From NCBI GenBank assembly GCA_030599515.1, contig JAUVNV010000001.1:1-63171 (forward strand): 63,171 nt of DNA. Reading direction: 5' to 3'. Source of the DNA: Acidimicrobiia bacterium (GTDB lineage: Bacteria; Actinomycetota; Acidimicrobiia; Spongiisociales; UBA5794). The translations under genes and the position numbers were made by a program. Below the pieces are notes generated by a model. That model was not told the DNA's origin. It worked only from the letters and a program-made list of their open reading frames with translations, and searched no databases. Every line of letters starts with the position of its first letter. The first letter of the stretch is position 1. Positions 2,457 through 61,378 of this stretch are shown here, one piece after another.

Positions 2457-2870
2457 GTGGACACTGAGATCCTCTCGATCGAGACCGGATACCGGAGAGG
2501 CGTCTTCGATCTCACATCTGATGCAGCTCGATTCGTTGCAGGCAAGGGTTACGGCCTGCTCAACGTCTTCGTTCCACACGCAACCGCCGGTGTCGCGGTG
2601 ATCGAGACGGGGGCAGGGAGCGATGACGACCTGATGGATGCGATCGACGCGATGCTGCCGAGGGACGACCGTCGCTATCGTCACCGCCACGGATCTCCCG
2701 GACACGGAGCCGACCACGTCATGCCGGGATTCGTTGCCCCATCGACGATCGTACCGGTGACCGATGGTCGCCTCGCTCTGGGAACGTGGCAATCCATCGT
2801 CCTGGTAGACCCGAACGAAGACAACCCCGTCCGAAAGGTTCGTCTGAGCTTCCTGAGCAGTAGAAAGTAG
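2457..2870 (+). CDS. YjbQ/UPF0047 family protein (secondary thiamine-phosphate synthase-like)
   Basis: 137 aa with YjbQ-like length and a conserved His-rich core (RHRHGSPGHGADHV). The last residues SSRK and the TAG stop are encoded by the GTAGAAA repeat. Confidence 0.7.
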   Translation: MDTEILSIETGYRRGVFDLTSDAARFVAGKGYGLLNVFVPHATAGVAVIETGAGSDDDLMDAIDAMLPRDDRRYRHRHGSPGHGADHVMPGFVAPSTIVPVTDGRLALGTWQSIVLVDPNEDNPVRKVRLSFLSSRK

Positions 2871-2922
2871 AAAGTAGAAAGACCCCGGCAACGCTCGCGG
2901 GTCTTGTCTTTCTACTTTCTAC
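2860..2922. repeat. Heptad tract A. (GTAGAAA)x3 is paired with an inverted (CTTTCTA)x2 to form a long imperfect hairpin.
   Basis: GTAGAAA units lie at 2860-2880 and CTTTCTA units at 2908-2921. The inner stem is GACCC/GGGTC with a 5-nt bulge. The tract lies between yjbQ-like and rplY and is terminator-like. Confidence 0.8.
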
Positions 2923-3000
2923 CGACTCCCTCATGTGCTTTGTCCGTATCGTCCCCCTACACTCTGGGAACCCCCAAACGTTCTCCGAGGAGCCCTCATC

Positions 3001-3675
3001 ATGCAGCAAGAGACCTTGCGCGCTCTCAAGCGCACCGGATTCGGAAGCCGACCCGCACGCCGCATGCGTCGCGACGGCCAGATTCCAGCCGTCGTCTACG
3101 GCAAGGGACTCGACACACAACAGGTCGCCGTCCAGAGTCGCGCTCTGCACGCCGTCCTGCACACCGATGCCGGGATGAACGCACTCATCAACGTCGAGAT
3201 CGACGGAGGCAGCGACATTCTCACTGTTGCTCGAGAGATTCAGCGCGACCCGGTTCGGGGAGATATCACCCACCTCGACTTCATCATGGTCTCGCTCGAC
3301 GTGGAGATCGAGGCCGAAGTCGGCATCGAGTACGTCGGCACACCGATCGGCATCAAGGAGGAAGGCGGGTTCGTCGAGACGATGGAGACCTCGGTCACGA
3401 TCATGGCGCTCCCAGCGGCCATTCCTTCATCGATCACCTTCGACATCTCCGAACTCGGCATAGGCGACATCGTCAAGGTCTCGGACCTTCCGGAGATCGA
3501 GGGTGTGACGTACTCCACGGATGAGGACCGGCCGCTGTTGACCGTGCTGCTGCCCGCCATCGTTGAAGAAGAGGAGGTCCCGGAGGATCTGCTCGAGGGC
3601 GAAGAGGGCGAAGAAGTCGAAGAGGGCGAAGAAGTCGAAGAGGACGCAGCCAAAGCCGATACCGACAAAGGCTGA
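3001..3675 (+). CDS. rplY: 50S ribosomal protein L25 / general stress protein Ctc
   Basis: N-terminus carries RRMRRDGQIPAVVYGKG and the C-terminal tail is acidic and E-rich. GAGGAG lies 8 nt upstream of ATG 3001. The track ORF from 2935 is an over-extension. Confidence 0.88.
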   Translation: MQQETLRALKRTGFGSRPARRMRRDGQIPAVVYGKGLDTQQVAVQSRALHAVLHTDAGMNALINVEIDGGSDILTVAREIQRDPVRGDITHLDFIMVSLDVEIEAEVGIEYVGTPIGIKEEGGFVETMETSVTIMALPAAIPSSITFDISELGIGDIVKVSDLPEIEGVTYSTDEDRPLLTVLLPAIVEEEEVPEDLLEGEEGEEVEEGEEVEEDAAKADTDKG

Positions 3676-3684
3676 CCGGGTCGC

Positions 3685-4260
3685 GTGACGACGAGACTCA
3701 TCGTCGGCCTGAGGAACCCCGGTTCCCGCTACGACGGTACCCGCCACAACGTTGGCGCCGAGGTCGTCATCGCCGCTGCGCCGAACGCCAAGTTCAAGCG
3801 TGCTCGGTTGGGAATCCGGGCCGACATCGCGGAGATCCGTTTCGACGATGTTCGGACCGTTCTCGCGTTGCCGCGCACCTTCATGAACGAGTGCGGTCAA
3901 GCCGTCGCTCCGCTGGTCCGCTACGAGCGAATCGACGGGGATCGACTGCTGGTCGTCCACGATGACATCGATCTCCCATTCGGGAAGCTTCGGGTTCAGC
4001 TCGGAGGTGGTGCAGGCGGGCACAACGGCATCCGATCTCTGGTCGGTTCTCTCGACACGAAGGAATTCTGGCGACTGAAGATCGGCGTCGGCCGTCCTCC
4101 CGATCGTGTCGACCCCGCCGATTACGTGCTCGGTCGATTCGCTAAGGTCGAACGGTCCGCCATCGACGACGCCATCGCTCGGGGCGTCGGCGTCCTCGAG
4201 ACATTCGCACGAGACGGTGGTGACGCCGCCAGGCAGAGCGCTGGAGAGATGAACGACTGA
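3685..4260 (+). CDS. pth: Peptidyl-tRNA hydrolase
   Basis: 191 aa with the signature [20 protein letters not shown]. Conserved position after rplY. Confidence 0.92.
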
Positions 4261-4268
4261 GAGGTGCG

Positions 4269-5753
4269 GTGATGGGTTCCTATGTTGCAGCGATCGACCA
4301 GGGAACGACCAGTTCACGGTGCGCTCTGATCGACCATCACGGGGCGATCGTTGCGATGGCGCAGCGGGAACACCGACAGATCTACCCCCAGCCCGGTTGG
4401 GTGGAGCACGACCCGGTAGAGATCCGATCGAACGTCACCGACGTCATCGGCGAGGCGCTTGACCAGATCGACGCCTCGCCTGCGGACATCTCAGCGGTCG
4501 GTGTTACGAACCAGCGCGAGACGACCCTGCTCTGGTCACGCAAGACCGGCGAACCCTTCGGCAATGCCGTGGTCTGGCAGGATGTCAGGACCGCCGAGCT
4601 CTGCCGGGAGCTGGGCGGCGACGCAGGCGCCGACCGATTCCGTGACCAGACGGGTCTTCCACTCGCTACCTACTTCGCAGGACCGAAGATCAGGTGGCTC
4701 CTCGATCACGACGCCGAACTCCGGGCGCGAGCCAACGACGGAGATCTGGCTTTCGGGACGATGGACACGTGGGTGGCGTGGAATCTGACGGGTGAACACG
4801 TGACGGACGTCACGAACGCCAGCCGCACCCTGCTCATGGATCTCGAGACGCTTTCGTGGGATGACACCCTGCTCGACGCGGTCGGCGTGCCGCGATCATT
4901 GCTTCCCCTCATCGTCCCATCGTCCGGTGTGATAGCACCCTCACGAGATCCGCTGAGCGACGTTCTGTTCGCCGGGATCCTCGGCGATCAGCAGGCCGCA
5001 CTGTTCGGACAGGCATGTTTCGACCCGGGCACCGCCAAGAACACCTACGGCACCGGGTGTTTCCTGCTCCTGAATACCGGCGAGCAGGCGGTTCGATCGG
5101 AGAACGGGATGATCACCACGGTCGCATACCAGCGGACGGGGGAGCCGGCACACTACGCCTTGGAAGGATCGATCGCAATCGCCGGCGCAGGAGTGCAGTG
5201 GCTGCGTGACAACCTTCGGATGATCGATTCGGCTGAGGAGATCACGGATCTTGCTCTCGAGGTCGAGGACAACGGTGGTGTCTACTTCGTCCCTGCGTTC
5301 TCCGGTCTGTTCGCTCCGTGGTGGCGCGACGACGCCCGCGGTGTCATCACCGGTCTCACACGGTTCGCGAATCGCAGCCACCTGGCACGAGCCGTTCTCG
5401 AGTCGACTGCTTTCCAGAGCCGGGATGTGCTCGAGGCCATGGAAGCCGACAGTGGCGTCGCTCTCTCCAGATTGAAAGTCGACGGGGGGATGGTCGTGAA
5501 CGACCTCCTCATGCAGTTCCAAGCCGACATGCTCGACGTCGACGTCGTTCGACCGAAGATCAACGAGACGACCGTGCTCGGCGCGGCGTACGCCGCCGGT
5601 CTCGCCGTCGGCTTCTGGGAAAGCCTCGATGAGATCGCCTCTCACTGGGAAGAGGATCGAACGTTCACTCCCGAGATGGATCCGGCTGATCGAGAGCTGA
5701 GGTATCGGGAGTGGCGCAAGGCAGTCGATCGGTCGATGGGGTGGGTCGAGTAG
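4269..5753 (+). CDS. glpK: Glycerol kinase
   Basis: 494 aa. FGGY-family motifs [16 protein letters not shown] and [10 protein letters not shown]. Confidence 0.93.
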
Positions 5754-6347: not shown

Positions 6348-6386
6348 GGGTCGGCCGTAGGCCACGACCCGCAACGTGCTGTTCAA

Positions 6387-6421
6387 GTACTCAGTACTCA
6401 GTACCCGGTACTCAGTACCGA
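6387..6421. repeat. Heptad tract B: GTACTCA GTACTCA GTACCCG GTACTCA GTACCGA
   Basis: Five contiguous 7-nt units read directly from the sequence. The tract lies between pgsA and the epimerase gene. The track ORF starting at 6376 reads through it (YSVLSTRYSV), which I treat as spurious. Confidence 0.85.
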
Positions 6422-10400: not shown

Positions 10401-10808
10401 ATCGATCTGCCGCTCGACGCCCGGCTCACCGATGCGTACGTTCCCGATGCCGACGGGCGCCTCGAGGCGTATCGCCGTCTCGCCGCAGCCACGACTGAGG
10501 ACGACGTCGACGACGTGGTCGCAGAGTGGGAAGACCGTTTTGGGTCGCTGCCGGTTGAGGCCGAAGAGCTGATCTCCGTCGCCCGTCTCCGGGTAGAGGC
10601 TTTGCGCGTGGGCCTCGACGAGATCGTTCAGGTGCGCGCCGAAGTCCGGATTTCGAAAGTCGATCTACGACCGTCACAGGAGGTGCGTCTCGAGCGTCTC
10701 CAGCATCGTGCGGTCCTGCGCGGATCGACGCTGTTCATCCCGGCCCCGAAGAGCGACGTGGCGAAGGTGTTGCTCCAGTTCCTGCAGACGATGTGGCCGG
10801 CGGAGTAG
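7461..10808 (+). CDS. mfd: Transcription-repair coupling factor
   Basis: 1115 aa. SF2 helicase motifs GDVGFGKTEVA and VVDEEQRFG, a CarD-like domain and a TRCF C-terminal domain. The TAG stop lies in the first unit of tract C. Confidence 0.95.
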   Translation: MGAPLISVLERFGRGLIPPIPGRFVVPPALRSVVLAGIASRTGRKVIGVVPGEREAEDLAEDVALFATEVHHLPAWETLPFEHVSPSISTMADRIVARHALASDGQAIIVASVRAVTQRLSPTPAEPIHLVAGTDSPFDDLVRRLAALGYRRTDRVESRGEFAVRGGIVDVFSPQAPQPVRIDFWGDTVEEIRPFVVSTQRSEGTVDGVDVFPTGEVLISDEMRVRAAQLLVEAPWGASTWERISEGIRFQGIESWLPWLASPRTIIDETDAIVVLFDPVRAKDRCRDLIGEETDLAVALSGTWGKNGPAPAAHPPLYLSLSPGPDVDVLEAPPAPASPGDDGYEMRGFGATVGDPQSVASSITEWAGRGIDVIIAMDGASAAERVSGLLAESGAGLTVVDQLISIESSVLPTGIHLGFVFPSMRVAVVGEREIAGRRRAHRTARRGRGDRADEAYRDLNPGDFVVHHHHGLGRFEGLVHRDIAGAARDYLLVEYAAGDRLYVPTDQLAAIRRYTGGETPRLSRLGGTDWSQTRKRVRREIAVVAEAVVELHRTRAAAAGHAFDPDTPWQGEFEAAFPYEETPDQLTAIADVKRDMELDAPMDRLVFGDVGFGKTEVALRAMFKAVQDGKQAAILVPTTLLAQQHFVTLEERFAPFPIRVEVLSRFLTPPQQRKVVAGIADGSVDAVVGTHRLLSTDVEFNDLGLLVVDEEQRFGVSAKDKLKALRASVDVLTLTATPIPRTLEMALTGIREVSKIRTAPEDRHPILTYVGPNDEQAVSAAIRREMLREGQVFYVHNRIQSIDHAVARLRDLVPDARYAVAHGRMSEGQLEQVMYDFWNRDYDVLVATTIIESGLDLPQVNTLIVERADRLGLAQLYQLRGRVGRSSQRAYAYLFHPPEERIGENAYRRLEAIGEFSDLGSGFELAMRDLEIRGAGSILSETQSGQIAAVGFDLYTELVAEAVQELKGEPIEREEEHEVRIDLPLDARLTDAYVPDADGRLEAYRRLAAATTEDDVDDVVAEWEDRFGSLPVEAEELISVARLRVEALRVGLDEIVQVRAEVRISKVDLRPSQEVRLERLQHRAVLRGSTLFIPAPKSDVAKVLLQFLQTMWPAE

Positions 10809-10912
10809 CGGAGTAGCGGAGTCGCGGAGTGGCGGAGTCGCGGAGTCGCGGAGGGACTCTTCGCCGACTACCGACTACCGACTACCGACTACCGACTACC
10901 GACTACCGACTA
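10801..10912. repeat. Tract C: (CGGAGTNG)x6-7 octamers followed by (CCGACTA)x7 heptamers
   Basis: Octamers lie at 10801-10856, one 7-nt linker CTCTTCG follows, then seven perfect CCGACTA units at 10864-10912. Confidence 0.9.
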
Positions 10913-10997
10913 CGGCGAGCAGGGGATCTCCCAAGGTTTCTCCGGGGATGATCGGTTTACGCGGTTTTCTGTCACAGTGGGTTGATACGTTGTCCGT

Positions 10998-12113
10998 ATG
11001 TTCTGGCAAACCCGTTCCGTGTCTGAGATGGAGGTAGAGCTCCTCGAGTTGGAGGAGAAGGTCTCTGAGATGAGGTGCCGTCAGTTGGTGCTGGTCAACG
11101 AGTTGGACAAGGTCAACATCGCCGCGTCGACCGGGTGTCGTTCCAGTGCGGAGTGGGTGGCGGCCCGTCTCGATCTCGGCCGCTCGACGGCGTCGGATCT
11201 GGTGTTTGCAGCCCGACGGTTGGCGAAGCATCGCCCAATCAACTTTCATCTGGCTGAGGGCCATATCAGCTTCGACCGGGCGGTTGCGACCATGCGTCTT
11301 GCCAAAGCGGGTGCGGACGAGGCGACGTTGAAGCATTCCGAGTCGTTGGATCTCGCCGGGGTGGGGCGGTTGACGTGCCGTCAGCGTCGTATCAGCCGTC
11401 GCGATGAGCGCGACGTGTTCGTGGAGCGTTTCGTGTCGGTTCAGCCGACGCTCGACGGTTCGTCGGGGCGTATATCTGCCCAGCTGCCCGGTATCGGGAT
11501 CCGCATCTTCGAGCAGGCGCTGTATGCACGCGCGGACGAGTTGCGTGCCTTGCCCGGCGGCGAAGCGTTCACTCGTGGTCAGCGTCAGGCCGACGCGCTG
11601 GTCGCACTGGCGATGGACTCCCTCGACCGCAACGGCGACATCGAAGGGTCGTCGGATTCTTCGGTGTCGATCTTCGTGGACCTCGACCGGGCGAACGGTA
11701 CCGGCGGTGAGATGGGTTGCGAGGTTGAGTACGGGCCGAGGGTCGGTCCGAACACGCTTGATGAGCTGCTGTGTACCGGCAGTGCGCAAATCATCGGGTT
11801 GGAGAAGGGCACACCCGTGGTCATCTCGCAGGCCGCGAGGGCGATCCCGCCCGCCGTCCGGCGTCTTGTGGCGGCCCGTGACGGCGGCTGCACCATTGCG
11901 GGCTGCACGTCTCGGTATCGGCTTGAGCCGCATCACATCAGGCTGCGTTCAAACGGCGGTTCCCACGACCCGGAGAATCTCACGACCCTGTGCTGGTTCC
12001 ACCACCACGTTGCGATCCACCAGCAGGGATTCCACATCGACCCCGACAGCCCGCCGCTGAGACGACACCTGATGCGGACACGAGCAGGTCCAGACCCACC
12101 GAGAATTGAGTAG
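10998..12113 (+). CDS. DUF222-type HNH endonuclease (13E12-repeat-family-like)
   Basis: 371 aa. The C-terminal HNH core is EPHHIRLRSNGGSHDPENLTTLCWFHHHVAIH. The N-terminal region resembles DUF222. The start could be 10998 or 11028. Confidence 0.8.
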   Translation: MFWQTRSVSEMEVELLELEEKVSEMRCRQLVLVNELDKVNIAASTGCRSSAEWVAARLDLGRSTASDLVFAARRLAKHRPINFHLAEGHISFDRAVATMRLAKAGADEATLKHSESLDLAGVGRLTCRQRRISRRDERDVFVERFVSVQPTLDGSSGRISAQLPGIGIRIFEQALYARADELRALPGGEAFTRGQRQADALVALAMDSLDRNGDIEGSSDSSVSIFVDLDRANGTGGEMGCEVEYGPRVGPNTLDELLCTGSAQIIGLEKGTPVVISQAARAIPPAVRRLVAARDGGCTIAGCTSRYRLEPHHIRLRSNGGSHDPENLTTLCWFHHHVAIHQQGFHIDPDSPPLRRHLMRTRAGPDPPRIE

Positions 12114-12198
12114 TCGAGTCCCCAGTCGCCAGTCCCCAATCGCCAGGCAGCCAGCAAGAGGAAACCTTCACCGGATACCGGATACCGGATACCGACTA
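12108..12198. repeat. Heptad tract D: 13 units including CCAGTCG CCAGTCC CCAATCG CCAGGCA GCCAGCA ... (CCGGATA)x3 CCGACTA
   Basis: The two repeat blocks are separated by exactly 14 nt, so a single 7-nt register is kept over 91 bp. The HNH TAG stop lies in the first unit. Confidence 0.75.
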
Positions 12199-12208
12199 CT
12201 GTCCGCGC

Positions 12209-14061: not shown

Positions 14062-14065
<4 letters not shown>
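13148..14065 (+). CDS. PpiC/parvulin-type peptidyl-prolyl isomerase lipoprotein
   Basis: Signal peptide with lipobox IVASCSG. Parvulin core VRHIL ... GEDFAAVAGEVS ... FGWHIIVV. Confidence 0.75.
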
Positions 14066-16837
<2,772 letters not shown>

Positions 16838-20903: not shown

Positions 20904-20987
20904 GCCCGGGTGGCGTAATCGGTAGACGCGGCGGTCTTAAACACCGCTGTCCTTCGGGGCGTGGGGGTTCAAGTCCCTCCCCGGGCA
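20904..20987 (+). tRNA. tRNA-Leu (anticodon TAA)
   Basis: Acceptor GCCCGGG/CCCGGGC, anticodon stem GCGGT/ACCGC with loop CTTAAAC, long variable arm, T arm GGGGG-TTCAAGT-CCCTC. Confidence 0.88.
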
Positions 20988-21006
20988 CAGAGCCTCAAGA
21001 GGCTCG

Positions 21007-21048
21007 GTAATGAGTACTGCGTATTGAGTACTCGGTACGACTACGGCT
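21007..21048. repeat. Heptad tract F: GTAATGA GTACTGC GTATTGA GTACTCG GTACGAC TACGGCT
   Basis: Six units in register directly after tRNA-Leu. The tract contains the minus-strand TAG stop (21041-21043) of the PLDc_N/SHOCT gene. Confidence 0.7.
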
Positions 21049-23928: not shown

Positions 23929-23959
23929 TCGGTTGTCGGTTGTCGGTTGTCGGTTGTCG
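23911..23959. repeat. Heptad tract G: (GTAGTCG)x3 (GTTGTCG)x4
   Basis: Seven perfect-register units. The GGDEF-EAL tail VVGSR and its TAG stop are encoded by the first units. Confidence 0.9.
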
Positions 23960-24104: not shown

Positions 24105-24110
24105 TCTCGT

Positions 24111-52767: not shown

Positions 52768-53442
52768 ATGGCTGATGCACCGACGGAACGCACGCGGGTC
52801 AGGCGCGCCAAGGACAAAGCACGGCATGACCGGGAGATCGTGAACGAGATCTTCGACGAGGCGTTGATCTGCCACGTCGGGTTCGTCGACGACGGTTCAC
52901 CGTTCGTGATCCCGACGATCCACGCCAGGGTCGGTGATGTCCTGTATTTCCACGGCTCTCCCGCGAGTCGCATGCTGCGTCTGATGAAGAACGGCGCCGA
53001 AATCACGATCACCGCAACGCTTCTCGACGGCATCGTCGCTGCACGCTCGGTCTTCCACCACTCGATGCACTACCGGTCCGCAATGATCTTCGGCACGGCG
53101 CGGATCGTCGACGCACGGGAAGAACGCATGATCGCGCTCGAGGCAATCTCGAACGCTGCGCTTCCGGGTCGCTGGGACGAAGCGAGGCTTCCGTCACGCA
53201 ACGAGGACAAGGGCACGCTCGTTGTCGCCGTTGCGATCGAGGAGTACTCGGCCAAGGTGAGCAACAAGGACGTCGGGGACGAAGATGACGACTACGACCT
53301 CCCCATCTGGGCCGGCGTCATCCCCCTGTCGATAGTGGCAGGCTCTCCTGTGCCCGATCACCGTCTGTTGGACGGCGTCGAGCTACCGGATTCGGTGAAG
53401 CAATTCGTGGCCGCCTTCGGCGGCGTAGTCGGTAGTCCGTAG
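52768..53442 (+). CDS. Pyridoxamine 5'-phosphate oxidase-like FMN-binding protein
   Basis: Split-barrel family pattern (CHVGFVDDGSPFVIPT ... YFHGS). The tail VVGSP and the TAG stop are encoded by tract N. Confidence 0.7.
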   Translation: MADAPTERTRVRRAKDKARHDREIVNEIFDEALICHVGFVDDGSPFVIPTIHARVGDVLYFHGSPASRMLRLMKNGAEITITATLLDGIVAARSVFHHSMHYRSAMIFGTARIVDAREERMIALEAISNAALPGRWDEARLPSRNEDKGTLVVAVAIEEYSAKVSNKDVGDEDDDYDLPIWAGVIPLSIVAGSPVPDHRLLDGVELPDSVKQFVAAFGGVVGSP

Positions 53443-53543
53443 TCCGGAGCGGGGTCCGTATCCTGTAGTCCGAGGTCCCTCTTCTTGCTGGCGGCTTGTA
53501 GCTTGCAGCTTGTAGCCCTTGTCTTTCTACTTTCTACTTGCTG
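53425..53543. repeat. Heptad tract N: 17 units (GTAGTCG GTAGTCC GTAGTCC ... CTTGTAG CTTGCAG CTTGTAG CCCTTGT CTTTCTA CTTTCTA CTTGCTG)
   Basis: 119 bp equals 17 x 7 with no register break. Its reverse complement matches tract O module by module. Confidence 0.9.
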
Positions 53544-54324
53544 AATTCACCGAATCGCGCCACTTCAACCACGGGCCTACCGGCTCCAGATCCAGGTCTG
53601 GTCCCGTCACGCCGATCGTGAACTCCGCGACGCCGAGCGTTCGGAAGGCATCTGCCTCATCGAGTTGCGCGGGTTTCACACCGATGGATCGTTCGATGGT
53701 CGAGGCGTCGCGACCAACTCTGGCACCCCACTCGTCGAGTACCTTCGACTTGTGGGCGATCGTTTCGAGATCACCGAAGGTGTGCCACACGTCGGCGTAC
53801 TCCGCAACGATGCGCAGTGTCACCTTCTCACCGCCGCCGCCGATCAGGATCGGGATGTGGCGGGTCGGTGGAGGATCGAGCCGTTCGAGCCGGTCCACGA
53901 TCCGGGGCATGGCAGCGTCGAGATCGCGAAGGCGACTGCCCTTCGTTCCGAAGTCGTAGCCGTACTCGTCGTAGTCCTTCTCGAACCAACCGGACCCGAT
54001 TCCGAGGATCAGTCGACCGCCGGAGATGTGATCGACGGTTCTTGCCATGTCGGCGAGGAGCTCCGGATTGCGATACGAGTTGCAGGTGACGAGTGCGCCG
54101 AAGTGGATTCGTTCCGTCTGCTCGGCCCAGGCCCCGAGCATCGTCCAGCACTCGAAGTGCTTCCCCACGTTGGGATCCGGGTCTCCGCCGTAGAGGGGGT
54201 AGAAGTGATCCCAGTTGTAGACGACGTCGACACCCATCTCCTCGGCTTCCATGACGGCGTCGCGGATGCCGGCGTAGTCGCTGTGCTGGGGATGGATCTG
54301 GACGGCGATTCGGACCGGTTCCAT
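53527..54324 (-). CDS. Luciferase-like monooxygenase (LLM) class F420-dependent oxidoreductase
   Basis: Start at ATG 54324 (MEPVRIAVQIHPQH). LLM TIM-barrel pattern (ILGIGSGW). The tail SASRK and the TAG stop are encoded by the TAGAAAG units of tract N. Confidence 0.8.
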   Translation of the reverse strand: MEPVRIAVQIHPQHSDYAGIRDAVMEAEEMGVDVVYNWDHFYPLYGGDPDPNVGKHFECWTMLGAWAEQTERIHFGALVTCNSYRNPELLADMARTVDHISGGRLILGIGSGWFEKDYDEYGYDFGTKGSRLRDLDAAMPRIVDRLERLDPPPTRHIPILIGGGGEKVTLRIVAEYADVWHTFGDLETIAHKSKVLDEWGARVGRDASTIERSIGVKPAQLDEADAFRTLGVAEFTIGVTGPDLDLEPVGPWLKWRDSVNSASRK

Positions 54325-54403
54325 GGCGCTACCTCCTGGGGCCGTTGCAGGCGAATCGTATCTCCCTCGCGTTCGTTGCACGACGGCCGGTATTCTCGCG
54401 GCC

Positions 54404-55627
54404 ATGGAGATCACGACACGCCCGATCATCGAGGACGAGTCGGTCGCGTTCCGCGAGGCCATCATGATTGGCTTCGGTGAGGACCTCGACGACGAGGAGT
54501 TCCCACCCGAGTGGTTCGCCGACCTCGTCCCTCTGGACCGAACCGTCGCGGCGTTCGAAGGGAACCAGATCGTCGGGACGCTCGCCGGATTCCCCTTCGA
54601 CGTCACCGTTCCCGGGGGTGTGCAGATCCCGATGGCCGGTACGACGATCGTGACGGTCGCGGCCACGCACCGTCGGCGCGGGTTGCTCACCGCGATGATG
54701 CGGGATCATCTCGACGATGGTCGCTCAAGGGGAGAACCGCTCGTCGGACTCTGGGCCTCTGAGAGCCTCATCTACGGGCGCTTCGGGTTCGGCGTCGCCA
54801 CCGAGCGCGAGGAGATCGAGATGGACCAAACCCGCATCTCGGTGGAAGGTGACGCCGGCTTGGTTCGACTCACCACTCCGGAAGAGGCGGGCAAGGTCTT
54901 TCCGGCGCTCTACGACGAGGAGCGCGTGAAGCGCCCGGGGATGCTCAGTCGCGCCGAGAAACGGTGGAAGCGAGAGGTCTTCTTCGATCCGAGTGCCCGA
55001 CGGCGGGGACTCTCGGCACAGCGGTATCTCGTACACGAAACCGAAGGTCGCGCCGACGGGTATGCGATCTATCGGCAGAAGCCGAACTGGGAAGCGGGCT
55101 TCGCGAACGGTGAGGTTCGCATCCGTGAGATCATCGCCACGACGTCTGCCGCGCATACCGGGCTCTGGAGATTCCTCACGACGATCGACCTGTTCCCCCA
55201 GGTCAAGCGGTGGAACCTTCCGGTCGATGATCCGCTGCGTCTAAAGGTCCCGGATCACCGTCGGATCATCCGCAAGCGTTGGGACGCTCTCCACCTCCGG
55301 ATCCTCGACGTCGTTCAGGCGCTGGAGGCCCGGACTTACGCAGCCGACGGCACACTGCGGTTCGCCGTTGACGACCCGTTCATTCCGGAAGCCGGGGGAG
55401 AGTTCGAACTGACCGTGGCCGACGGCGTCGGCCTATGCCATCGCATCGATCGGTCGGGCATCGACCTCACCATGGACACCGTCGATCTCGCGAGCCTCTA
55501 TCTCGGCGGTGGCGACGCCGAAGCGATGGCCATGGCCGGCCGGATGACAGGCAGCGAAGAGTCCGTCAGGAACCTCAACCGAATGTTCCGCGGGGATGTC
55601 GCGCCGTGGTGCGAAGAGGTATTCTGA
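54404..55627 (+). CDS. Eis-like GNAT acetyltransferase with a sterol-carrier-like C-terminal domain
   Basis: About 407 aa. GNAT core (VAATHRRRGLLTAMM), a second GNAT-like domain and an SCP2-like tail. Start at ATG 54404. Confidence 0.75.
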   Translation: MEITTRPIIEDESVAFREAIMIGFGEDLDDEEFPPEWFADLVPLDRTVAAFEGNQIVGTLAGFPFDVTVPGGVQIPMAGTTIVTVAATHRRRGLLTAMMRDHLDDGRSRGEPLVGLWASESLIYGRFGFGVATEREEIEMDQTRISVEGDAGLVRLTTPEEAGKVFPALYDEERVKRPGMLSRAEKRWKREVFFDPSARRRGLSAQRYLVHETEGRADGYAIYRQKPNWEAGFANGEVRIREIIATTSAAHTGLWRFLTTIDLFPQVKRWNLPVDDPLRLKVPDHRRIIRKRWDALHLRILDVVQALEARTYAADGTLRFAVDDPFIPEAGGEFELTVADGVGLCHRIDRSGIDLTMDTVDLASLYLGGGDAEAMAMAGRMTGSEESVRNLNRMFRGDVAPWCEEVF

Positions 55628-55825
55628 GAGCGGCCGTCGAGGGGAACGAAACGCGGCCGGGATGCGTTGTAGAAGGGAGCGACGGTTCGCCGGGGCGGTT
55701 CGGTCTTCCCCACTCCCACTCGTTCCTGCCCCGGCCCGCCGCTCCCTGAATTCCCGTCCTTTTCGTCCCACCCGTGGCGTACAATGGCACTACGTCGATA
55801 GTGGAAATCCTGGGAGTACAGCATT

Positions 55826-57229
55826 ATGACCACCGTTGATCTTGATCTCGGCTCCTACCAACTCGGTTGGGCCGACGAAGAGGACTACGTCTACAAGCCC
55901 GAGAAGGGCTTGAGCGAGCAGCTCATCCGCGACATGTCGCGCATGAAGAAGGAGCCTGAGTGGATGCTCGAGTTCCGGCTCAAGGCTTACAAGCGGTTCC
56001 TCGCCAAGCCGATGCCCCAGTGGGTCGGTGATGGGGCTCTCAACGAGATCGACTTCGACGACATCTACTACTACATCAAGCCGACCGAGGGTCAGGTCAA
56101 GGACTGGGACATGGTCCCGGACTCGATCAAGGAGACCTACGAGAAGCTTGGCATTCCAGAAGCCGAACGCAAGTACCTCGCTGGTGTTACTGCACAATAT
56201 GAGTCGGAGGTCGTTTACCACCGGAACCGGGAGGATCTCGAGGAGCTCGGCGTGCTGTTCACCGACATGGACACCGCCGTTCGCGACTACCCGGAGATCG
56301 TGAAGGAGTACTTCGGGACGATCATCCCTCCGGGCGACAACAAGTTCGCGGCCCTCAACTCCGCGGTCTGGTCGGGCGGCTCGTTCATCTACATCCCGCC
56401 CGGCGTCCACCTCGACGAGCCGCTCCAGGCCTACTTCCGCATCAACGCTGAGAACATGGGCCAGTTCGAGCGGACGCTGATCATCGTCGACGAGGGTGCC
56501 TTCGTGCACTACGTCGAAGGCTGCTCGGCCCCGGTCTACTCATCTGATTCGCTCCACTCGGCCGTGGTCGAGATCGTCGTCAAGGAAGGCGGTCGTGCCC
56601 GCTACTCGACGATCCAGAACTGGTCGAACAACGTCTACAACCTCGTGACGAAACGCGCCGTTGCATACAAGAACGCGACGATGGAATGGGTCGACGGGAA
56701 CCTCGGTTCGAAGTTCACCGCCAAGTACCCGGCGGTGTGGCTGATGGAAGAGGGTGCTCACGGAGAGGTCCTTTCGATCGCCATGGCCGGTGCCGGCCAG
56801 CACCTGGACGCCGGTGCGAAGATCGTCCATGTTGCGCCGAACACGACGTCGCTCATCACGTCCAAGTCGATCTCGATCCACGGTGGGCGTGCCGGATACC
56901 GGGGTCTCGTTCGCGTCGAACCGGGGGCGGAGGACTCGCGTTCCTTCGTCCGGTGTGATGCCCTGATTCTCGACGAGGACTCCCGGTCTGACACCTATCC
57001 ATACATGGAGATCGAGGAGTCGAACGTTGACATCGGTCACGAAGCGACCGTTTCGAAGGTGGGGGAGGATCAGCTCTTCTACTTGATGACCCGAGGTCTC
57101 ACCGAGGAACAGGCGACGGCGATGGTCGTGGCCGGCTTCATCGAGCCGATCGTCAAGGAGCTGCCGATGGAGTACGCGGTCGAACTGAACCGACTCGTCG
57201 AGCTCCAGATGGAAGGCTCGGTCGGCTAA
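55826..57229 (+). CDS. sufB: Fe-S cluster assembly scaffold protein SufB
   Basis: 467 aa, highly conserved throughout ([39 protein letters not shown]). Confidence 0.96.
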
Positions 57230-57259
57230 GGCGCGGTTCCGCCGGTACGCTCTCGTCCC

Positions 57260-57919
57260 ATGCGCATCGTCGTCGCCGACTGCACCGTCAACTACGCGGG
57301 TCGTCTTGCCGCGCACCTGCCACGGGCGACCCGGCTGATCATCATCAAGACCGACGGATCTCTCCTTGTCCACGCCGAAGCGGGCGCCTACAAGCCGTTG
57401 AATTGGATGAACGCTCCGAACCACCTCGTCGAAGAAGATGGGCGCTGGTTCCTCACCAACGGCAAGGGGGAGGAACTCACGATCGATCTTCACGAGATCC
57501 ACATGGACACGACCGTCGAACTCGGTGAAGATCCCGGATTACAGAAGGATGGCGTCGAGTTCGAACTCCAACGACTGCTTGCCGAGCAACCGGAGGCGAT
57601 CGAGGAGGGGATGACGCTGATCCGCCGGGAGTATCCGACACCGGTGGGTCCGGTCGATCTCCTCTGCCGCGACGCTTCGGGGAACACGGTCGCGATCGAG
57701 GTCAAGCGCCGGGGTGAGATCGATGGCGTGGAACAGCTCACCAGGTATCTCGAGTTCCTCAACCGGGACGAACGCCTCGCTCCCGTACGGGGGATCTTCG
57801 TGGCCCAGGCCGTGAAACCCCAAGCAAGAACGCTCGCAGCCGACCGGGACATAGCCTGGGCAGAAGTGGACTATGAAGCGCTCGTCGGACGAGACAGCGA
57901 CATCCTCAGGCTGTTCTGA
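57260..57919 (+). CDS. nucS: Endonuclease NucS (EndoMS, mismatch-specific)
   Basis: 219 aa. N-terminus [16 protein letters not shown] and a RecB-like C-terminal nuclease (DLLCRD ... VAIEVKRR). Confidence 0.92.
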
Positions 57920-57936
57920 CGGCTGCTCCGCAGCCG
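57920..57936 (+). terminator. Hairpin CGGCTGC-TCC-GCAGCCG directly after the nucS stop
   Basis: 7-bp GC stem that starts 1 nt after the TGA. Confidence 0.5.
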
Positions 57937-58124
<188 letters not shown>

Positions 58125-58125
58125 C

Positions 58126-58142
58126 ACCGGCCGAAGGCCGGT
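58126..58142 (-). terminator. Hairpin ACCGGCC-GAA-GGCCGGT at the sigma-factor stop
   Basis: 7-bp GC stem overlapping the minus-strand TGA (58142-58144). Confidence 0.5.
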
Positions 58143-59071
58143 CACAGCAGCGATCGAAGGTCGAACAGGGCGCTCGGGTGCCGGAGCTTGCCGAGAGCTC
58201 GGTTCTCGATCTGTCGCACGCGTTCTCGTGTGATCCCGAGTTCGGCGCCGACGCTGGAAAGCGTTCGTGGCGGATTGCCACCGATTCCGAATCGCATGAT
58301 GAGCACCTTGCACTCCCGCACCTCGAGAACGCCCAGTGCTTTGGAGACCTCTTCGCAGCGCGCGACCTCGGCGACGACGGTGAACGGATCGGGGGTCGCC
58401 TCGTCTTCGACGAAATCGCCGAGTTGAGCATCACCCTCCTCTCCGACGGGCCGATCGAGTGAGATCGTGTCCCCTGGTGTCGTTCGTGCCATCGCGACCC
58501 GATCCTCGTCGAGGCCGCTCACTTCGGCGATCTCGGAGACGGTCGGCATTCTGCGGAGCTGCTCCTGCAGGCTCAGTTCGGTCTCCTGCACGGTGCGGAC
58601 GACATCGACCATGTGCACCGGCAGGCGGATTGTTCTGCCCTGGTTCCCCAGGCCGCGGGTGATCGACTGGCGGATCCACCAGGTGGCGTAGGTCGAGAAT
58701 TTGAAGCCCTTGCGCCAATCGAACTTCTCGACCGCACGAATGAGTCCAAGGTTTCCTTCCTGGATGAGATCGAGCAGGTCAAGACCTCGTCCCGTGTAGC
58801 GTTTGGCGATCGAGACGACGAGCCGGAGGTTCGAGCGGATGAAGATGTCCTTCGCCCCATCCGCCATCTCGACCAGTCGATACAGCGAAGCCCGCTCGGC
58901 TGCTTCAACAGGATCGTCCGACTCGAGTCGACGTTGGGCCTTCCTGCCCGCTTCCATCGCGCGCGCGAGCCGAACCTCATCTTCGGCATCGAGCAGGCCG
59001 TGATCCGAAACCTGTCCGAGGTACCGTCCGACGGCATCCGCTGCTGCGCCCTCCCGTCCTCGTTCAGCCAC
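58142..59071 (-). CDS. RNA polymerase sigma-70 family factor, principal-like (group 1/2, SigB-like length)
   Basis: Regions 1.2 to 4.2 are present: DLIQEGNLGLIRAVEKFD, FSTYATWWIRQSITR and HTH LGITRERVRQIENRAL. The GTG 59071 start is preceded by GGAGGAGGAG. No long region 1.1. Confidence 0.88.
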   Translation of the reverse strand: MAERGREGAAADAVGRYLGQVSDHGLLDAEDEVRLARAMEAGRKAQRRLESDDPVEAAERASLYRLVEMADGAKDIFIRSNLRLVVSIAKRYTGRGLDLLDLIQEGNLGLIRAVEKFDWRKGFKFSTYATWWIRQSITRGLGNQGRTIRLPVHMVDVVRTVQETELSLQEQLRRMPTVSEIAEVSGLDEDRVAMARTTPGDTISLDRPVGEEGDAQLGDFVEDEATPDPFTVVAEVARCEEVSKALGVLEVRECKVLIMRFGIGGNPPRTLSSVGAELGITRERVRQIENRALGKLRHPSALFDLRSLL

Positions 59072-59172
59072 GTGCTCCTCCTCCCCCTCTCTTTGGAGAG
59101 AGCCGCTTGAACTTATCACGCATGAGCGCCATCGGCAATCGTTCATTACGCTTTCCTGACCGATCGGCAACC

Positions 59173-60675
59173 ATGACCCAACTCGCGCGCATCTCCGCTC
59201 TTGCGATGGCGCTCCTCTCCATCGCCGCGGCCGGCTGCACCAGTCCGGCTCCTCTCGACGCGTCCGCACTTCGCCCACCCGAGGTCGGGCCCCCGACGAT
59301 CGAAGTCGTGGTCCTTGCCGGCGATGATCTGAGCGTGCTCGATGCAGACATCGCTGTAGAGGGGGCTTCGATGTTCGAGACCGAAGAAGGAGTGCCGGCA
59401 TTCATCTGGCCGCAGGATTCGACGACCATCGAGGTGTCTGCTCCAGGATTCGAATCGCAGAGCGAGGTTGCCGATGATCCGCCCAGAGAGGATCGGATCG
59501 AGTTTCGCCTCGAGCCGGTCGTGCTTTCGGGTCGCGTCTCGACTCACCGGGGTATCGCACTGCCCGGTGTCGAAGTCACGCTCGGCGGCGGACACGACGT
59601 GACGAACGACGACGGTCTTTTCGAGATCGTGCGGGCGGAACCGGGGGAGCTTTCTCTCACCCGTCCGACCTGGCAGGATGCGCGTGTCCCGTGGGATGGT
59701 TCGACGAACGAGATCGACACGACGATGGAGCCCCTCGTGGTCCACGGCGTGCGAGTCAGCGGACCCGCGGCAGGTGATCCCCAGCACTGGCAACAACTGC
59801 TTGCCATGGCCGACTCGACCGGTATCAACGCTTTCATCGTGGATGTCAAGGACGAGTTCGGTACGGTGTTCCACGACACGACGGTCGACGGCGCCCACGA
59901 GGCATCTGCGGTGACACTCCAGTACGACCTGTCGGAGATCATCGCAGACATGGATGATCACGATCTCTACAAGATCGCTCGGATCGTCGCATTCCAGGAC
60001 ACGCCGATGGCGAGGACCGAACCCGATCACGCGGTCCTGCAAGCAGGGGGGTCAGATCTGTGGCGCACAGCGAACGGCGACGCGTGGATGGACCCGACCG
60101 ATCCGGTGGCCTTTGAGTATCCCGTAGCGCTTGCAGAAGAGGCTTGTCGTGCCGGCTTCGACGAGATCCAGTTCGACTTCGCATCCTTTCCGTTCGGCGG
60201 CGACGTGTCGACCGCCGTATTCGACGATGAGTACACGGAGGAGATTCGTGTCGCCTCGATTCAGGCGTTCCTGAAGCGCGCCTACCTGGTACTGAGCCCG
60301 CGATGCGGCGTCGCAGCGAGTGTGCTGGGCATCACGCTCGAGTCCGGAACCGATGAGGGCGTCGGTCAGCGTCCGGGCCTCATGTCGCGCACGATCGATG
60401 TTCTGAGCCCGATGCTGTACTCGACGAACTACGGGTCGGGATGGAAGGGCTACGCCAATCCCAACGACCACGCGGGCGACATCGTCGAGTCCGCTCTAGT
60501 GAGCGGCCTTTCACGGCTCGAAGGATTCGCCTACTACCGGCCGTGGCTCCAAACGTGGACGATCCCGGTCTTCGACATTCGGGGAATCCAGAGGAGGGTC
60601 GACGATCGGGTGACTGGGTGGATGCTCTGGTCGAACGCCGCGTCCTATCCGGCCGAGCTGTTGCCTCCGAAGTGA
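59173..60675 (+). CDS. Lipoprotein, putative glycoside-hydrolase-like TIM barrel (DUF4015-like) with an N-terminal CarboxypepD_reg-like domain
   Basis: Lipobox IAAAGCTS with start at ATG 59173. The core INAFIVDVKDEFG ... FDEIQFDF resembles the DUF4015/GHL families. Confidence 0.55.
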   Translation: MTQLARISALAMALLSIAAAGCTSPAPLDASALRPPEVGPPTIEVVVLAGDDLSVLDADIAVEGASMFETEEGVPAFIWPQDSTTIEVSAPGFESQSEVADDPPREDRIEFRLEPVVLSGRVSTHRGIALPGVEVTLGGGHDVTNDDGLFEIVRAEPGELSLTRPTWQDARVPWDGSTNEIDTTMEPLVVHGVRVSGPAAGDPQHWQQLLAMADSTGINAFIVDVKDEFGTVFHDTTVDGAHEASAVTLQYDLSEIIADMDDHDLYKIARIVAFQDTPMARTEPDHAVLQAGGSDLWRTANGDAWMDPTDPVAFEYPVALAEEACRAGFDEIQFDFASFPFGGDVSTAVFDDEYTEEIRVASIQAFLKRAYLVLSPRCGVAASVLGITLESGTDEGVGQRPGLMSRTIDVLSPMLYSTNYGSGWKGYANPNDHAGDIVESALVSGLSRLEGFAYYRPWLQTWTIPVFDIRGIQRRVDDRVTGWMLWSNAASYPAELLPPK

Positions 60676-61364
60676 GTGCCGTCGATGAACTCGCGCTGCT
60701 GGCGGAAGAGATCGCCGGCTGCCGCCGTTGCCCGCGCCTCGTTGAGTGGCGCGAGAGGGTTGCCGCAGACAAGCGGGCGGCGTTCGTCGACGATGAGTAC
60801 TGGGGGAGGCCCGTTCCGGGTTTCGGCGATCCGCAAGCTGGAGTCGTTGTCGTCGGCCTTGCTCCCGCGGCCCATGGCGCCAATCGGACCGGGCGGATGT
60901 TCACTGGCGACCGCAGCGGCGACTGGCTCTACCGGGCCATGTGGCGGGCCGGTCTCGCGAGTCAGCCCGAGTCATCCGGTCGTGATGACGGACTGACGCT
61001 CTTCGGGGCGTGGGTAACGGCACCCGTGCGGTGCGCTCCACCGCAGAACAAGCCCACGGTCGACGAGAGAGACACGTGTGCGGCGTGGTTCGGACGGGAA
61101 CTCGACATCCTCGAGCCGGTCGTCCTGGTGGCCCTCGGTGACTTCGCCTACCGATCGATCTGGCGATACCTCGGTGCTGCGGGCCACGACCTGCCGAGGC
61201 CGAGACCGCGATTCGCCTTCGGTCTCGAGGTCGCCGTTCCGAATGGCCCGGTGATCCTGGCAAGCTTCCACCCCAGCCAACAGAACACCTTCACAGGGAG
61301 ACTGACGGAAGACATGTTGGATGCCGTGTTCGCCAGAGCGAAGGTACTGAGTACTGAGTACTGA
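60672..61364 (+). CDS. Uracil-DNA glycosylase, family 5 (UdgB-type), Fe-S containing
   Basis: Motifs CRRCPRL, GLAPAAHGANRTGRMFTGD and SFHPSQQN. GTG start with a GTGA overlap. The tail VLSTEY and the TGA stop are encoded by tract P. Confidence 0.82.
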   Translation: MSAVDELALLAEEIAGCRRCPRLVEWRERVAADKRAAFVDDEYWGRPVPGFGDPQAGVVVVGLAPAAHGANRTGRMFTGDRSGDWLYRAMWRAGLASQPESSGRDDGLTLFGAWVTAPVRCAPPQNKPTVDERDTCAAWFGRELDILEPVVLVALGDFAYRSIWRYLGAAGHDLPRPRPRFAFGLEVAVPNGPVILASFHPSQQNTFTGRLTEDMLDAVFARAKVLSTEY

Positions 61365-61378
61365 GTACTGGGTACGCC
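61344..61378. repeat. Heptad tract P: (GTACTGA)x3 GTACTGG GTACGCC
   Basis: Five units at the convergent udgB/M23 junction. Confidence 0.85.

Follow-up and report, generated by a model that had tools for sequence, protein, structure and literature searches.

A stretch of 63,171 nucleotides from an uncultured Acidimicrobiia bacterium (contig JAUVNV010000001.1 of assembly GCA_030599515.1, positions 1 to 63,171; the whole stretch is referred to below as the window) contains numerous tracts composed of tandem 7-nt units. We find that these period-7 tracts are real and far beyond chance expectation, that they are located almost only in spacers that hold a gene 3' end, often running onto the stop codon itself, and that the arrays gain and lose whole 7-nt units, with variant units spreading within an array in blocks. 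The tracts are likely to be heptanucleotide microsatellites, of the type known as long simple sequence repeats (LSSR) or short tandemly repeated repetitive (STRR) sequences, and to grow by slippage beside terminator-like hairpins. We conclude that they extend a known, poorly understood repeat class to a new lineage and do not constitute a new kind of element.

Period-7 tracts in excess of chance

The original prediction, based on inspection of the window alone, listed tracts (labelled A to P) with a period of 7 nt at gene boundaries. The existence of such tracts is confirmed by two types of search. Tandem Repeats Finder reports 21 period-7 rows, all within 2859-61375. Using our own criterion for a tract of period p (at least 85% self-match at lag p over 2p bases), we find 18 tracts covering 581 nt in the window at p = 7, compared to 1, 2, 1, 1, 0, 0 and 0 tracts at p = 5, 6, 8, 9, 10, 11 and 12, respectively; that is, the neighbouring periods are not enriched. 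After a low-complexity filter 17 period-7 tracts are observed, against a mean of 0.57 and a maximum of 4 in 100 dinucleotide-preserving shuffles, while 0-1 tracts are found at each of the periods 5, 6 and 8-11. When only the spacers (2,515 nt) are considered, 12 period-7 tracts are found where 0.005 are expected, so the tracts are far more common than sequence composition predicts. Both the number and the length of the arrays therefore exceed the expectation from composition, as in heptanucleotide LSSR. The tracts (~740 nt in total) were also said to be less GC-rich than the surrounding DNA, and they are, at 52% GC compared to 63.8% for the window.

The features are listed below, with predicted hairpins written as stem-loop-stem and features without an assigned orientation given as unstranded. 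Most of the listed tracts have the period of 7 originally ascribed to them; the array of tract C has a period of 8.

Tract A1, 2860-2880, plus strand: (GTAGAAA)x3; the TAG stop (2868-2870) of the UPF0047 gene at 2457-2870 lies in it
Tract A2 with central hairpin, 2881-2922, unstranded: GC hairpin (GACCCCGG...CGCGGGTC) and (TTTCTAC)x2; A2 is the exact reverse complement of A1, 28 nt (4x7) apart
Tract B, 6387-6421, unstranded: GTACTCA GTACTCA GTACCCG GTACTCA GTACCGA, between the stop at 6347 (hairpin 6348-6370 after it) and the true epimerase start at 6448
Tract C, 10800-10853, plus strand: period 8, GCGGAGTM x6.8; holds the TAG stop of mfd (10806-10808)
Tract D, 10864-10913, minus strand: (CCGACTA)x7, perfect, which is GTAGTCG on the minus strand; upstream of a DUF222/HNH gene
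Tract E, 12117-12199, unstranded: part 1, AGTCCCC AGTCGCC AGTCCCC AATCGCC, then filler; part 2, after the filler, ACCGGAT x3 ACCGACT AC (GTATCCG/GTAGTCG on the minus strand)
Tract F, 20990-21040, plus strand: 7-bp GC hairpin GAGCCTC-AAGA-GAGGCTC directly after tRNA-Leu(TAA), then GTAATGA GTACTGC GTATTGA GTACTCG GTACGA, reaching the stop of the convergent gene at 21041 (region 20904-21040)
Tract G, 23908-23961, plus strand: (GTAGTCG)x3 and, in the same register, (GTTGTCG)x4; the GGDEF/EAL gene takes its TAG stop (23926-23928) from it
Tract H, 24091-24105, unstranded: short GTACTCA GTACTG remnant just upstream of the ABC-F start at 24111
Tract I, 25713-25752, plus strand: hairpin GAATGC-TGC-GCATTC after the ABC-F stop, then GTACTCA GTACCGA GTACTCA; convergent spacer
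Tract J, 32099-32146, plus strand: hairpin GCCGCC-TCC-GGCGGC, starting 1 base after the menF-like stop, then GTACTGA GTATTGA GTACTGA GTACTCA ATACT; the menD-like gene (minus strand) has its TGA stop in the array, at 32139-32141
Tract K (menB-menA spacer), 34704-34832, unstranded: hairpin GGCGC-TCC-GCGCC; (GTACTGA GTACCGA)x2.5; GACAGGC arm; loop; CCTGTTG CCTGTCT CCTGTTG CCTGTCA; hairpin GGCTGGC-AGCT-GCCAGCC
Tract L, 37131-37155, unstranded: GAGTACC GAGTACC GAGTACT CAGT, reaching the TGA stop 37155-37157 of the minus-strand nitrilase-family gene; a GC hairpin lies ~50 nt upstream (~37058-37080)
Tract M, 41993-42024, minus strand: weak period-7 run, GGCTGTT-like, 80% matches; within the N-terminal coding region of the GH57 lipoprotein gene
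Tract N1, 53410-53445, plus strand: hairpin GCCGCC-TTC-GGCGGC, located in the final codons of the pyridoxamine-oxidase-like gene; next, GTAGTCG GTAGTCC GTAGTCC, which gives the TAG stop 53440-53442
Tract N2, 53494-53516, plus strand: GCTTGTA GCTTGCA GCTTGTA GC
Tract N3, 53523-53539, minus strand: CTTTCTA CTTTCTA CTT (GTAGAAA on the minus strand); gives the TAG stop 53527-53529 of the minus-strand luciferase-like gene
Tract O1, 57920-58012, plus strand: hairpin GGCTGC-TCC-GCAGCC directly after the nucS stop, then GAGTAGCG-like units, (GTGGAAA)x3 (GTAGAAA)x5
Tracts O2/O3, 58041-58141, minus strand, as read on that strand: after the stop of the sigma-factor gene (58142-58144), hairpin CCGGCC-TTCG-GCCGG; GTAGTCC GTAGTCC GTAGTCG GTACTCC GTACTCG GTATTCG CTAGTCC GTAG; and, after a slip at 58068-58072, GTATCCC GTATCCC GTAGTCC
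Tract P, 61344-61390, unstranded: (GTACTGA)x3 GTACTGG GTAC, in which the UDG-family gene has its TGA stop (61362-61364), followed by hairpin GCCGCC-GGA-GGCGGC

Unit-step variation between strains

Exact-protein look-ups led to five conspecific contigs, with 99.6-99.8% identity to the window, from four other samples. No match was returned for EF-G, PRPP synthetase, Pth, the small gene at 21041, the CBS gene, the CDP-alcohol transferase or the gene at 25770; consequently, the strain-level data cover tracts K, N, O and P only. These contigs directly show hypermutability in steps of one unit. At N2, contig L161 reads GCTTGTA GCTTGTA, having lost exactly one 7-nt unit (window 53504-53510), and this loss is the only indel in 21.5 kb of aligned conspecific sequence and the only one in the 7.4 kb of L161. 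At O1, the window has 3 GTGGAAA followed by 5 GTAGAAA units, L161 has 1 GTGGAGA, 2 GTGGAAA and at least 6 GTAGAAA, and L163 has at least 8 GTAGAAA; both contigs break inside the O1 array. At least one extra unit is thereby present at O1 in contigs of 99.6% identity. The remaining differences leave the length unchanged: L163 has four unit-level substitutions in O3, L164 reads GTACTGA GTACTGG GTACTGA GTACTGG in P compared to (GTACTGA)x3 GTACTGG in the window, and L162 differs in K by one single-nucleotide substitution in the filler (34772). Change of whole-unit copy number between strains, a property of heptanucleotide LSSR, is therefore found at N2 and O1.

Breaks of short-read contigs inside arrays mark the tracts as hard to assemble, which could be taken to mean that they are chance matches or an artefact of assembly. 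We give this reading virtually no credence. No shuffle reaches the observed count, the arrays are identical or differ by one unit in the five contigs, which were assembled independently from the four other samples, and relatives have arrays too, on contigs of 0.4-0.9 Mb, one of the arrays in L053 being 140 nt long. Since independent assemblies reproduce the tracts, an assembly artefact is ruled out.

The breaks are an observation of interest on their own. Contigs L161 (end), L163 (start) and L165 (start) begin or terminate inside arrays, and eight arrays lie within 70 bases of the end of the record in six related loci; arrays at contig edges include L003 5857-5915, L007 1-34, L020 5329-5364, L081 43-64 and L101 9-35. 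Heptamer repeats are a systematic cause of assembly breaks in the short-read metagenome contigs of this clade.

Arrays in related genomes

Relatives were drawn from the Mfd and MenB neighbourhoods in scans of a genome collection and of metagenomes. The closest Mfd relatives, at 90-91% identity, are metagenome-assembled genomes labelled Acidimicrobiia or Actinomycetota in which the gene order is conserved. The close relatives contain 28 period-7 arrays in 189 kb compared to 0-8 arrays for other periods. Per 10 kb there are 2.7 arrays in the window, compared to 1.5 in close relatives; the density is 0.5 for distant Acidimicrobiia and 0.2 for the other hits. The distant Acidimicrobiia are patchy, with two loci reaching 5-7.5 arrays per 10 kb, and the farther MenB hits are near background. 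The heptamer-array trait is patchy and restricted to the lineage.

Relatives at 74-87% nucleotide identity have heptamer arrays in orthologous spacers, in other copy numbers and often with other units. The spacer of tract A, which contains GTAGAAA/TTTCTAC in the window, has GTAGAGA facing ~20 CTCTCTA units in L053. The spacers of tracts B and F both hold GTACTSA units in the window and both hold units of a CTNCCRG/CYGGNAG family in L053 and L004; similarly, the spacers of J and K share GAGACNC/GTGTCTC units in L085 and GTACTGR units in the window and in L081. At the spacer of tract K, L081 retains the full architecture (GTAC array, inverted GACAGGN/CCTGTNN arms and hairpin) with different copy numbers. 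In more distant relatives the menB-menA spacer has a length of only ~20-30 nt and no array, which indicates that the array is dispensable at this locus. Among pairs of arrays from the same genome located more than 400 nt apart, 19-22% have units at distance 1 or less, as compared to 4.4% between genomes (a ~5-fold difference). Taken with the exact 7-nt difference between conspecific strains, this supports the original proposal that the tracts arise by a shared generating process.

The 8-mers of tract C have counterparts at the same place in L053, L004 and L009, from which it follows that tract C is older than most 7-nt arrays; it is the only non-7 array of its kind in the window.

Two side observations concern these loci. 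Acidimicrobiia-type mfd neighbourhoods occur on contigs L004, L013 and L017 in bins labelled Saprospiraceae or Kiloniellales; the DNA identity to the window is 84-89% for L004 and ~68-71% for L013 and L017, with the same gene order, and these bins are probably mis-binned or mis-labelled. In addition, the mfd-ROK spacer (window 10809-12208) is an insertion hot spot. In the window it contains a DUF222 gene (10998-12113) with an HNH-like C-terminus, flanked by related arrays in the same orientation, (CTACCGA)x7 upstream and ATACCGG x3 ATACCGA CTAC downstream. The gene is missing from the corresponding spacers of L053 (13350-13422) and L004 (6357-6492), the latter with one CTACGGA-type array, and other inserts are found in L012 (1.6 kb, 2819-4400) and L006 (2.4 kb, 13343-15715). 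The DUF222 gene may have been inserted into, or recombined at, a heptamer array.

Location relative to genes

The gene map was based on codon usage and two start codons were corrected. The genes of the window are of the bacterial housekeeping type and include glmU, prs, L25, pth, mfd, enolase, ftsB, ppx, sufB, nucS, a men operon and the genes for EF-G, an ABC-F protein, GH57, a sigma-70 factor and a UDG. All tracts except 41993-42024 are intergenic or overlap a stop codon, and eight genes have their stop codon supplied by a tract (plus strand: 2868-2870, 10806-10808, 23926-23928, 53440-53442 and 61362-61364; minus strand: 32139-32141, 37155-37157 and 53527-53529). In the window, tracts are present in 7 of 8 convergent, 6 of 15 co-directional and none of 5 divergent spacers. 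The corresponding numbers are 7/24, 20/80 and 1/16 in the relatives, where spacers were typed with a cruder gene map than that of the window, and 14/32, 26/95 and 1/21 in the pooled data. Fisher's test for convergent versus divergent spacers gives p=0.005 in the window, p=0.11 in the relatives alone and p=0.002 in the pooled set; that is, the positional bias is significant in the window and in the pooled data only and not in the relatives alone. As many as 65 of 67 arrays in the relatives are outside coding sequence, and the mainly non-coding location agrees with heptanucleotide LSSR. The placement in spacers and on stop codons, mainly at gene 3' ends, is thus as originally described, with one exception.

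The exception, tract M, is the sole intragenic case and may be a chance occurrence. The intragenic run (41993-42031) is located in an N-terminal extension (VKEPTANGQQPTARR...) ahead of a lipoprotein-type signal peptide; the GH57 glycosidase gene concerned also has an SLH-like C-terminal module, and its start overlaps the stop of an M3 peptidase gene by 4 nt. A different intragenic repeat is found at 3595-3643 in the acidic C-terminal tail of the L25/TL5 gene, where an in-frame 18-nt (also 9-nt) unit, CGAAGAGGGCGAAGAAGT, is repeated 2.4 times; this repeat is of the ordinary coding kind and has no relation to the 7-nt tracts.

Unit vocabulary and register

Most units have the form GTA-NNNN on one strand (GTAGAAA, GTAGTCG/C, GTAGCTT, GTATCCG and GTACTGA/GTACCGA/GTATTGA). 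The vocabulary claimed to be shared among loci is indeed shared: GTAGAAA occurs at 2860, 53523 (as complement) and 57978, GTAGTCG/GTAGTCC or its complement at 10864, 23908, 53425 and 58041-58127, and GTACTGA/GTACTCA/GTACCGA/GTATTGA at 6387, 21007, 24091, 25732, 32114, 34718, 37131 and 61344. The GTAC units are palindromic at their core, such that GTACTGA on one strand is GTACTCA on the other and a GTACTGA array is self-complementary save for one G.G mismatch per unit. Units that differ by a single base occur in blocks within one register, for example GTAGTCGx3 followed by GTTGTCGx4 and GTGGAAAx3 followed by GTAGAAAx5.

The arrays consist of contiguous head-to-tail 7-nt units with no spacers between them (the array at 10800-10853, with period 8, being the one departure), as expected for heptanucleotide LSSR. 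A common register is preserved inside arrays and across the 28-nt filler of 2860-2922. The more general claim of a register maintained throughout each tract fails in tract O, which has a 5-nt phase slip at 58068-58072, and in tract N, which has at least two phase changes when anchored on GTA; these tracts rule out a strict global 7-nt register. Moreover, where adjacent arrays are built of unrelated units, the register between them cannot be defined.

Several interpretations can be set aside on the basis of the units themselves. As originally stated, the tracts are not coding repeats, which is evident from their period of 7 and their location outside open reading frames, and they are not CRISPR arrays, where repeats of 23-50 nt are separated by unique spacers; the units here are 7 nt long and contiguous. 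Selection for units that contain stop codons is not indicated: about half of the unit types hold a stop on either strand, roughly as expected, and the bias of stop-containing units to the sense strand is forced wherever an array overlaps a stop codon. C-rich Rho-loading sites are inconsistent with the composition (GTAGAAA has no C and GTTGTCG is G-rich). Formation of G-quadruplexes is also rejected because no array has four G3 or C3 runs, the maximum being three G3 runs (58051-58067).

Hairpins adjoining the arrays

Many tracts are part of a polarised module in which a stop codon is directly followed by a small GC-rich hairpin, often with the loop TCC, TTC or GGA; a GTA-led array of the same strand begins 0-2 nt beyond the hairpin. 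The module is present at J, K, N1, P and O3 and in a looser form at O1, F, I and B. At tract F the hairpin and array are preceded by tRNA-Leu(TAA), which means that the module also follows an RNA gene. Short GC hairpins outside coding sequence are located in tract-bearing spacers in 7 of 7 cases.

It is conceivable that the tracts themselves act as transcription terminators, bidirectional at convergent junctions, in which case selection would act on the stem-loops and the period of 7 would be merely the mode by which stems are lengthened. Predicted RNA folds are more stable than those of shuffled sequences at A (z = -7.5), J (-6.6), K (-4.3), P (-4.3), F (-3.8) and B (-3.2); the tract A spacer folds over its entire length into a single long hairpin, and the tract J array forms a perfect 12-13 bp hairpin. 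The near self-complementarity of GTACTGA arrays agrees with such a role, as do the inverted heptamer arrays that flank a loop at many orthologous spacers in relatives and the co-variation of their arms, GTAGAAA/TTTCTAC in the window versus GTAGAGA/TCTCTAC in L053. However, tracts E (+0.8), G (+1.5), N (0.0) and O3 (-0.9) are no more structured than shuffles, and the value for O1 (-2.4) is due to the adjoining GC hairpin, the O1 array itself being unpaired in the predicted fold. The arms can also be very unequal (~2 versus ~20 units in L053), no tract has a T-run, and the plain GC hairpins in the same spacers are likelier terminators. We therefore consider terminator function of the tracts themselves very unlikely. 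A universal hairpin function is ruled out by the five tract regions that fold no better than shuffles, and with z ranging from -7.5 to +1.5 the period of 7 is the sole property common to all tracts.

The adjoining hairpins do not match the form of an intrinsic terminator in that no T-run follows the GC hairpins next to the arrays, and a scan of 25000-38500 for consensus terminators selected none at tracts I, J, K or L. A search of the whole window against Rfam 15 at the gathering score returned only two tRNAs and a search of 53300-61500 at E<=1 returned no match; the tracts do not match a known structured RNA family.

The hairpins could also indicate that hairpin and array together constitute a mobile element resembling REP/REPIN sequences or miniature inverted-repeat transposable elements (MITE), with a transposase encoded elsewhere (for example, of the RAYT-type Y1 family). 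The heptad arrays would then be by-products, either of cycles of cleavage and joining or of slippage inside the element. The 19-mer GCCGCCTCCGGCGGCGTAC, which consists of a hairpin plus GTAC, is found exactly at J (32099-32117), exactly inverted at P (61372-61390, minus strand) and with two mismatches at N1 (53410-53428), each time at the foot of a heptamer array, where the chance expectation is 0.07. The sequence GCCGCCTYCGGCGGC followed by GTA occurs three times in the window, and related hairpins precede the arrays at K and O. REP elements carry a conserved GT(A/G)G tetranucleotide beside the palindrome. Other points of likeness to REP/REPIN sequences are the small GC-rich hairpins located at gene 3' ends and in convergent junctions, the inverted pairs, the short conserved motif beside the stem, and sequence families that are specific to a genome. 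The difference is that REPs are single palindromes of 20-40 nt whereas the window has tandem 7-nt arrays without a conserved full-length element, and neither defined ends nor target-site duplications are recognizable. Furthermore, hairpins differ by locus (GAGCCTC, GAATGC, GGCGC, GGCTGC and CCGGCC), loci other than J, P, N1, K and O have unrelated hairpins or none, many arrays (D, E and G) have no adjoining hairpin, and the variation between strains consists of 7-nt steps within arrays and not of presence or absence of an element. No transposase is found among the scanned genes of the 63-kb window, and the exact GCCGCCTCCGGCGGCGTAC motif is absent from all 160 related loci except for the conspecific contigs. 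On balance, a mobile element is a decidedly improbable source of the tracts.

Comparison with described repeats

The original prediction stated that no described family matches the tracts. This is not the case: the tracts fit the class of heptanucleotide LSSR and therefore belong with repeats that are already described, an outcome which the original prediction itself had named as a refutation. In the account of Mrazek et al. (2007) given in later articles (PMC4679880, PMC4692102), heptanucleotides are the most abundant long-SSR class in most of the genomes rich in 5-11 nt repeats, including those of Actinobacteria, and polymerase slippage was proposed as their cause. The similarities comprise head-to-tail 7-nt units beyond chance length, mostly intergenic location, sporadic phylogenetic spread, whole-unit copy change and slippage as the proposed origin. 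The window differs in that its units have a GTA core and that many of its arrays extend from the foot of a GC hairpin located directly after a stop codon. We found no earlier report of heptamer repeats in Acidimicrobiia in the searchable literature.

The closest parallels in location are the heptamers GGGAATC of Xanthomonas and GGGGA(C/T)T of Nostoc, which are intergenic, rare between divergent open reading frames, and found within 50 bp of a stop codon or on it; about 70 inverted pairs are able to form stem-loops, and length and sequence differ extensively at the same spacers between close species (Rehm et al. 2015, PMC4692102). The window shares with them the dominant unit family present at many spacers of a genome, the proximity to stop codons, the scarcity within genes and in divergent spacers, the inverted pairs, and the variation of length and sequence at the same spacers in related genomes. 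In contrast to the window, where the tracts are AT-enriched relative to the genome, the Xanthomonas and Nostoc units are G-rich and form G-quadruplexes, a structure not available to the window tracts because they lack four G3/C3 runs. The positional rules of these repeats thus apply to the window and the presence of a G-tract in every unit does not.

TAACTGA repeats occur in marine Beggiatoaceae, some cyanobacteria and Bacteroidetes (MacGregor 2015, PMC4679880). Strains differ by indels in 7-nt increments, the repeats are mixed with other heptamers in Microcystis, and in a Beggiatoaceae genome most TAACTGA arrays lie just upstream of start codons in forward orientation (PMC4679880). Like these, the window arrays are intergenic heptamer arrays with stop codons in all frames, and GTACTGA has ACTGA in common with TAACTGA (5/7 positions); unlike these, they are found after stop codons and are missing from promoter-only spacers. 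The window tracts lack the exact unit TAACTGA, GTACTGA being the closest, and are not assigned to the TAACTGA type.

The cyanobacterial STRRs (Mazel et al. 1990, cited in PMC4692102) are non-coding tandem repeats of heptanucleotides, of which a genome has several unit families. They are the oldest example of heptamer repeats. They belong to another phylum, and the main window units (GTACTGA, GTAGAAA and GTAGTCS) are not STRR units, which separates the window tracts from the STRR families proper. The unit of STRR1, CCCCA(A/G)T, corresponds to the AGTCCCC/AATCGCC-type units at 12117-12146, a minor array and the only one in the window that resembles STRR1.

A comparison of a different kind is provided by HutP and TRAP, protein rings that read evenly spaced NAG triplets. 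By analogy with HutP of Bacillus (UAG-N4-UAG-N4-UAG), the arrays could be platforms for an oligomeric protein that binds RNA or single-stranded DNA and reads GUA or UAG every 7 nt; located in 3' untranslated regions, they would control termination, stability of 3' ends or insulation of convergent genes, and the vocabulary would co-evolve with the protein. GTAG-type arrays do give UAG every 7 nt, which is the HutP spacing UAG-N4. Genome-specific vocabularies common to unrelated spacers are consistent with a platform of this type, as are the ~3-fold enrichment of GTA across the clade and its dominance in the window, the unstructured tracts E, G, N and O1, which would be usable as single-strand platforms, and the stop-hairpin-GTA polarity in the sense of the upstream gene at J, N1, O1, O3, P, F, I and B. 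RNA-binding regulators were proposed by MacGregor for the TAACTGA repeats (PMC4679880), and a Nostoc preprint reports regulatory effects of heptamer repeats. However, HutP and TRAP each act at a single regulatory leader, which precedes one operon and has a set number of triplets, whereas here dozens of variable arrays are located after genes. The arrays hold anywhere from 2 to 20 units (20 in L053), strains are not alike in copy number, orthologous spacers of relatives have had their units exchanged entirely, and the same spacer is array-free in slightly more distant relatives. In addition, asymmetric units are antisense at tracts D, E2 and A2, placement on stop codons in itself forces some of the orientation bias, and neither a HutP/TRAP-type protein nor another candidate binding protein is found among the genes of the window (63 kb). 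We regard this reading as unlikely.

Origin of the arrays

We thus favour slippage-driven microsatellites as the explanation. The arrays would be created and resized by slipped-strand mispairing or template switching during replication, probably favoured by stalling at the adjoining terminator-like hairpins. Mismatch repair of the NucS type, on which this lineage probably relies, would leave the slippage loops uncorrected; for mycobacteria it is known that indels are not corrected by NucS in vivo (PMC7015689). The arrays may persist where 3' spacers tolerate them, which promoter-bearing divergent spacers would not. Arrays with a GTAC core and inverted pairs could join into long stem-loops that may aid termination or stability of 3' ends, and most arrays would be passengers and not required elements. 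The genome-specific vocabulary may result if similar arrays at different loci exchange or re-seed their units through ectopic recombination or template switching.

The window includes nucS (57260-57919), which encodes the NucS/EndoMS protein of non-canonical Actinobacterial mismatch repair, adjoining the largest tract (O). This adjacency of nucS to the longest tract is probably coincidental.

Some of the evidence weighs against slippage as the complete explanation. Units that contain GTA or TAC account for 37% of arrays across the clade compared to 12% expected. The GTACTSA class is present at 8 spacers of the window and other genomes reuse other units across their spacers, a vocabulary that purely local slippage does not predict because the units are genome-specific and common to many loci. 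Local slippage does not explain the polarised hairpin-array module either; the combination of a GC hairpin that has a TYC loop with a GTA-led array directly after it is found in five spacers, three of the hairpins are nearly identical, and the module looks more organised than random slippage. Xanthomonas and cyanobacteria possess MutS/L and yet carry heptamer repeats, so the absence of canonical mismatch repair cannot be the main cause, and lack of MutS/L is rejected as a sufficient cause since other repeat-rich taxa have these proteins. Finally, the unit length of 7 is accounted for neither here nor in the literature.

Points of this kind lead to the bolder idea that a trans-acting factor reads or writes 7-nt units 3' of terminator hairpins and thereby gives each array-rich genome its vocabulary, which we consider rather unlikely. 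Such a factor could be a ring-shaped protein that binds RNA or single-stranded DNA, or an enzyme that nicks or primes at GTA(C/G).

Significance

The analysis adds to the known carriers of heptamer repeats a new lineage, the Acidimicrobiia, which have NucS, the Actinobacterial substitute for MutS/L repair. It also adds handles on the phenomenon, namely unit-step polymorphism between near-identical strains, the polarised stop-hairpin-array module, and replacement of units at orthologous spacers combined with sharing of units across spacers within a genome. In practical terms, the tracts are useful as strain markers and they cause contig breaks in metagenome assemblies of the group. More generally, their features frame a choice between a mutational by-product and the product of a trans-acting factor. 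If the latter were true, the stop-hairpin-(GTA-NNNN)n module would be a previously unrecognised kind of 3'-end element, and the same logic would explain the heptamer families of cyanobacteria, Xanthomonas and Beggiatoaceae.

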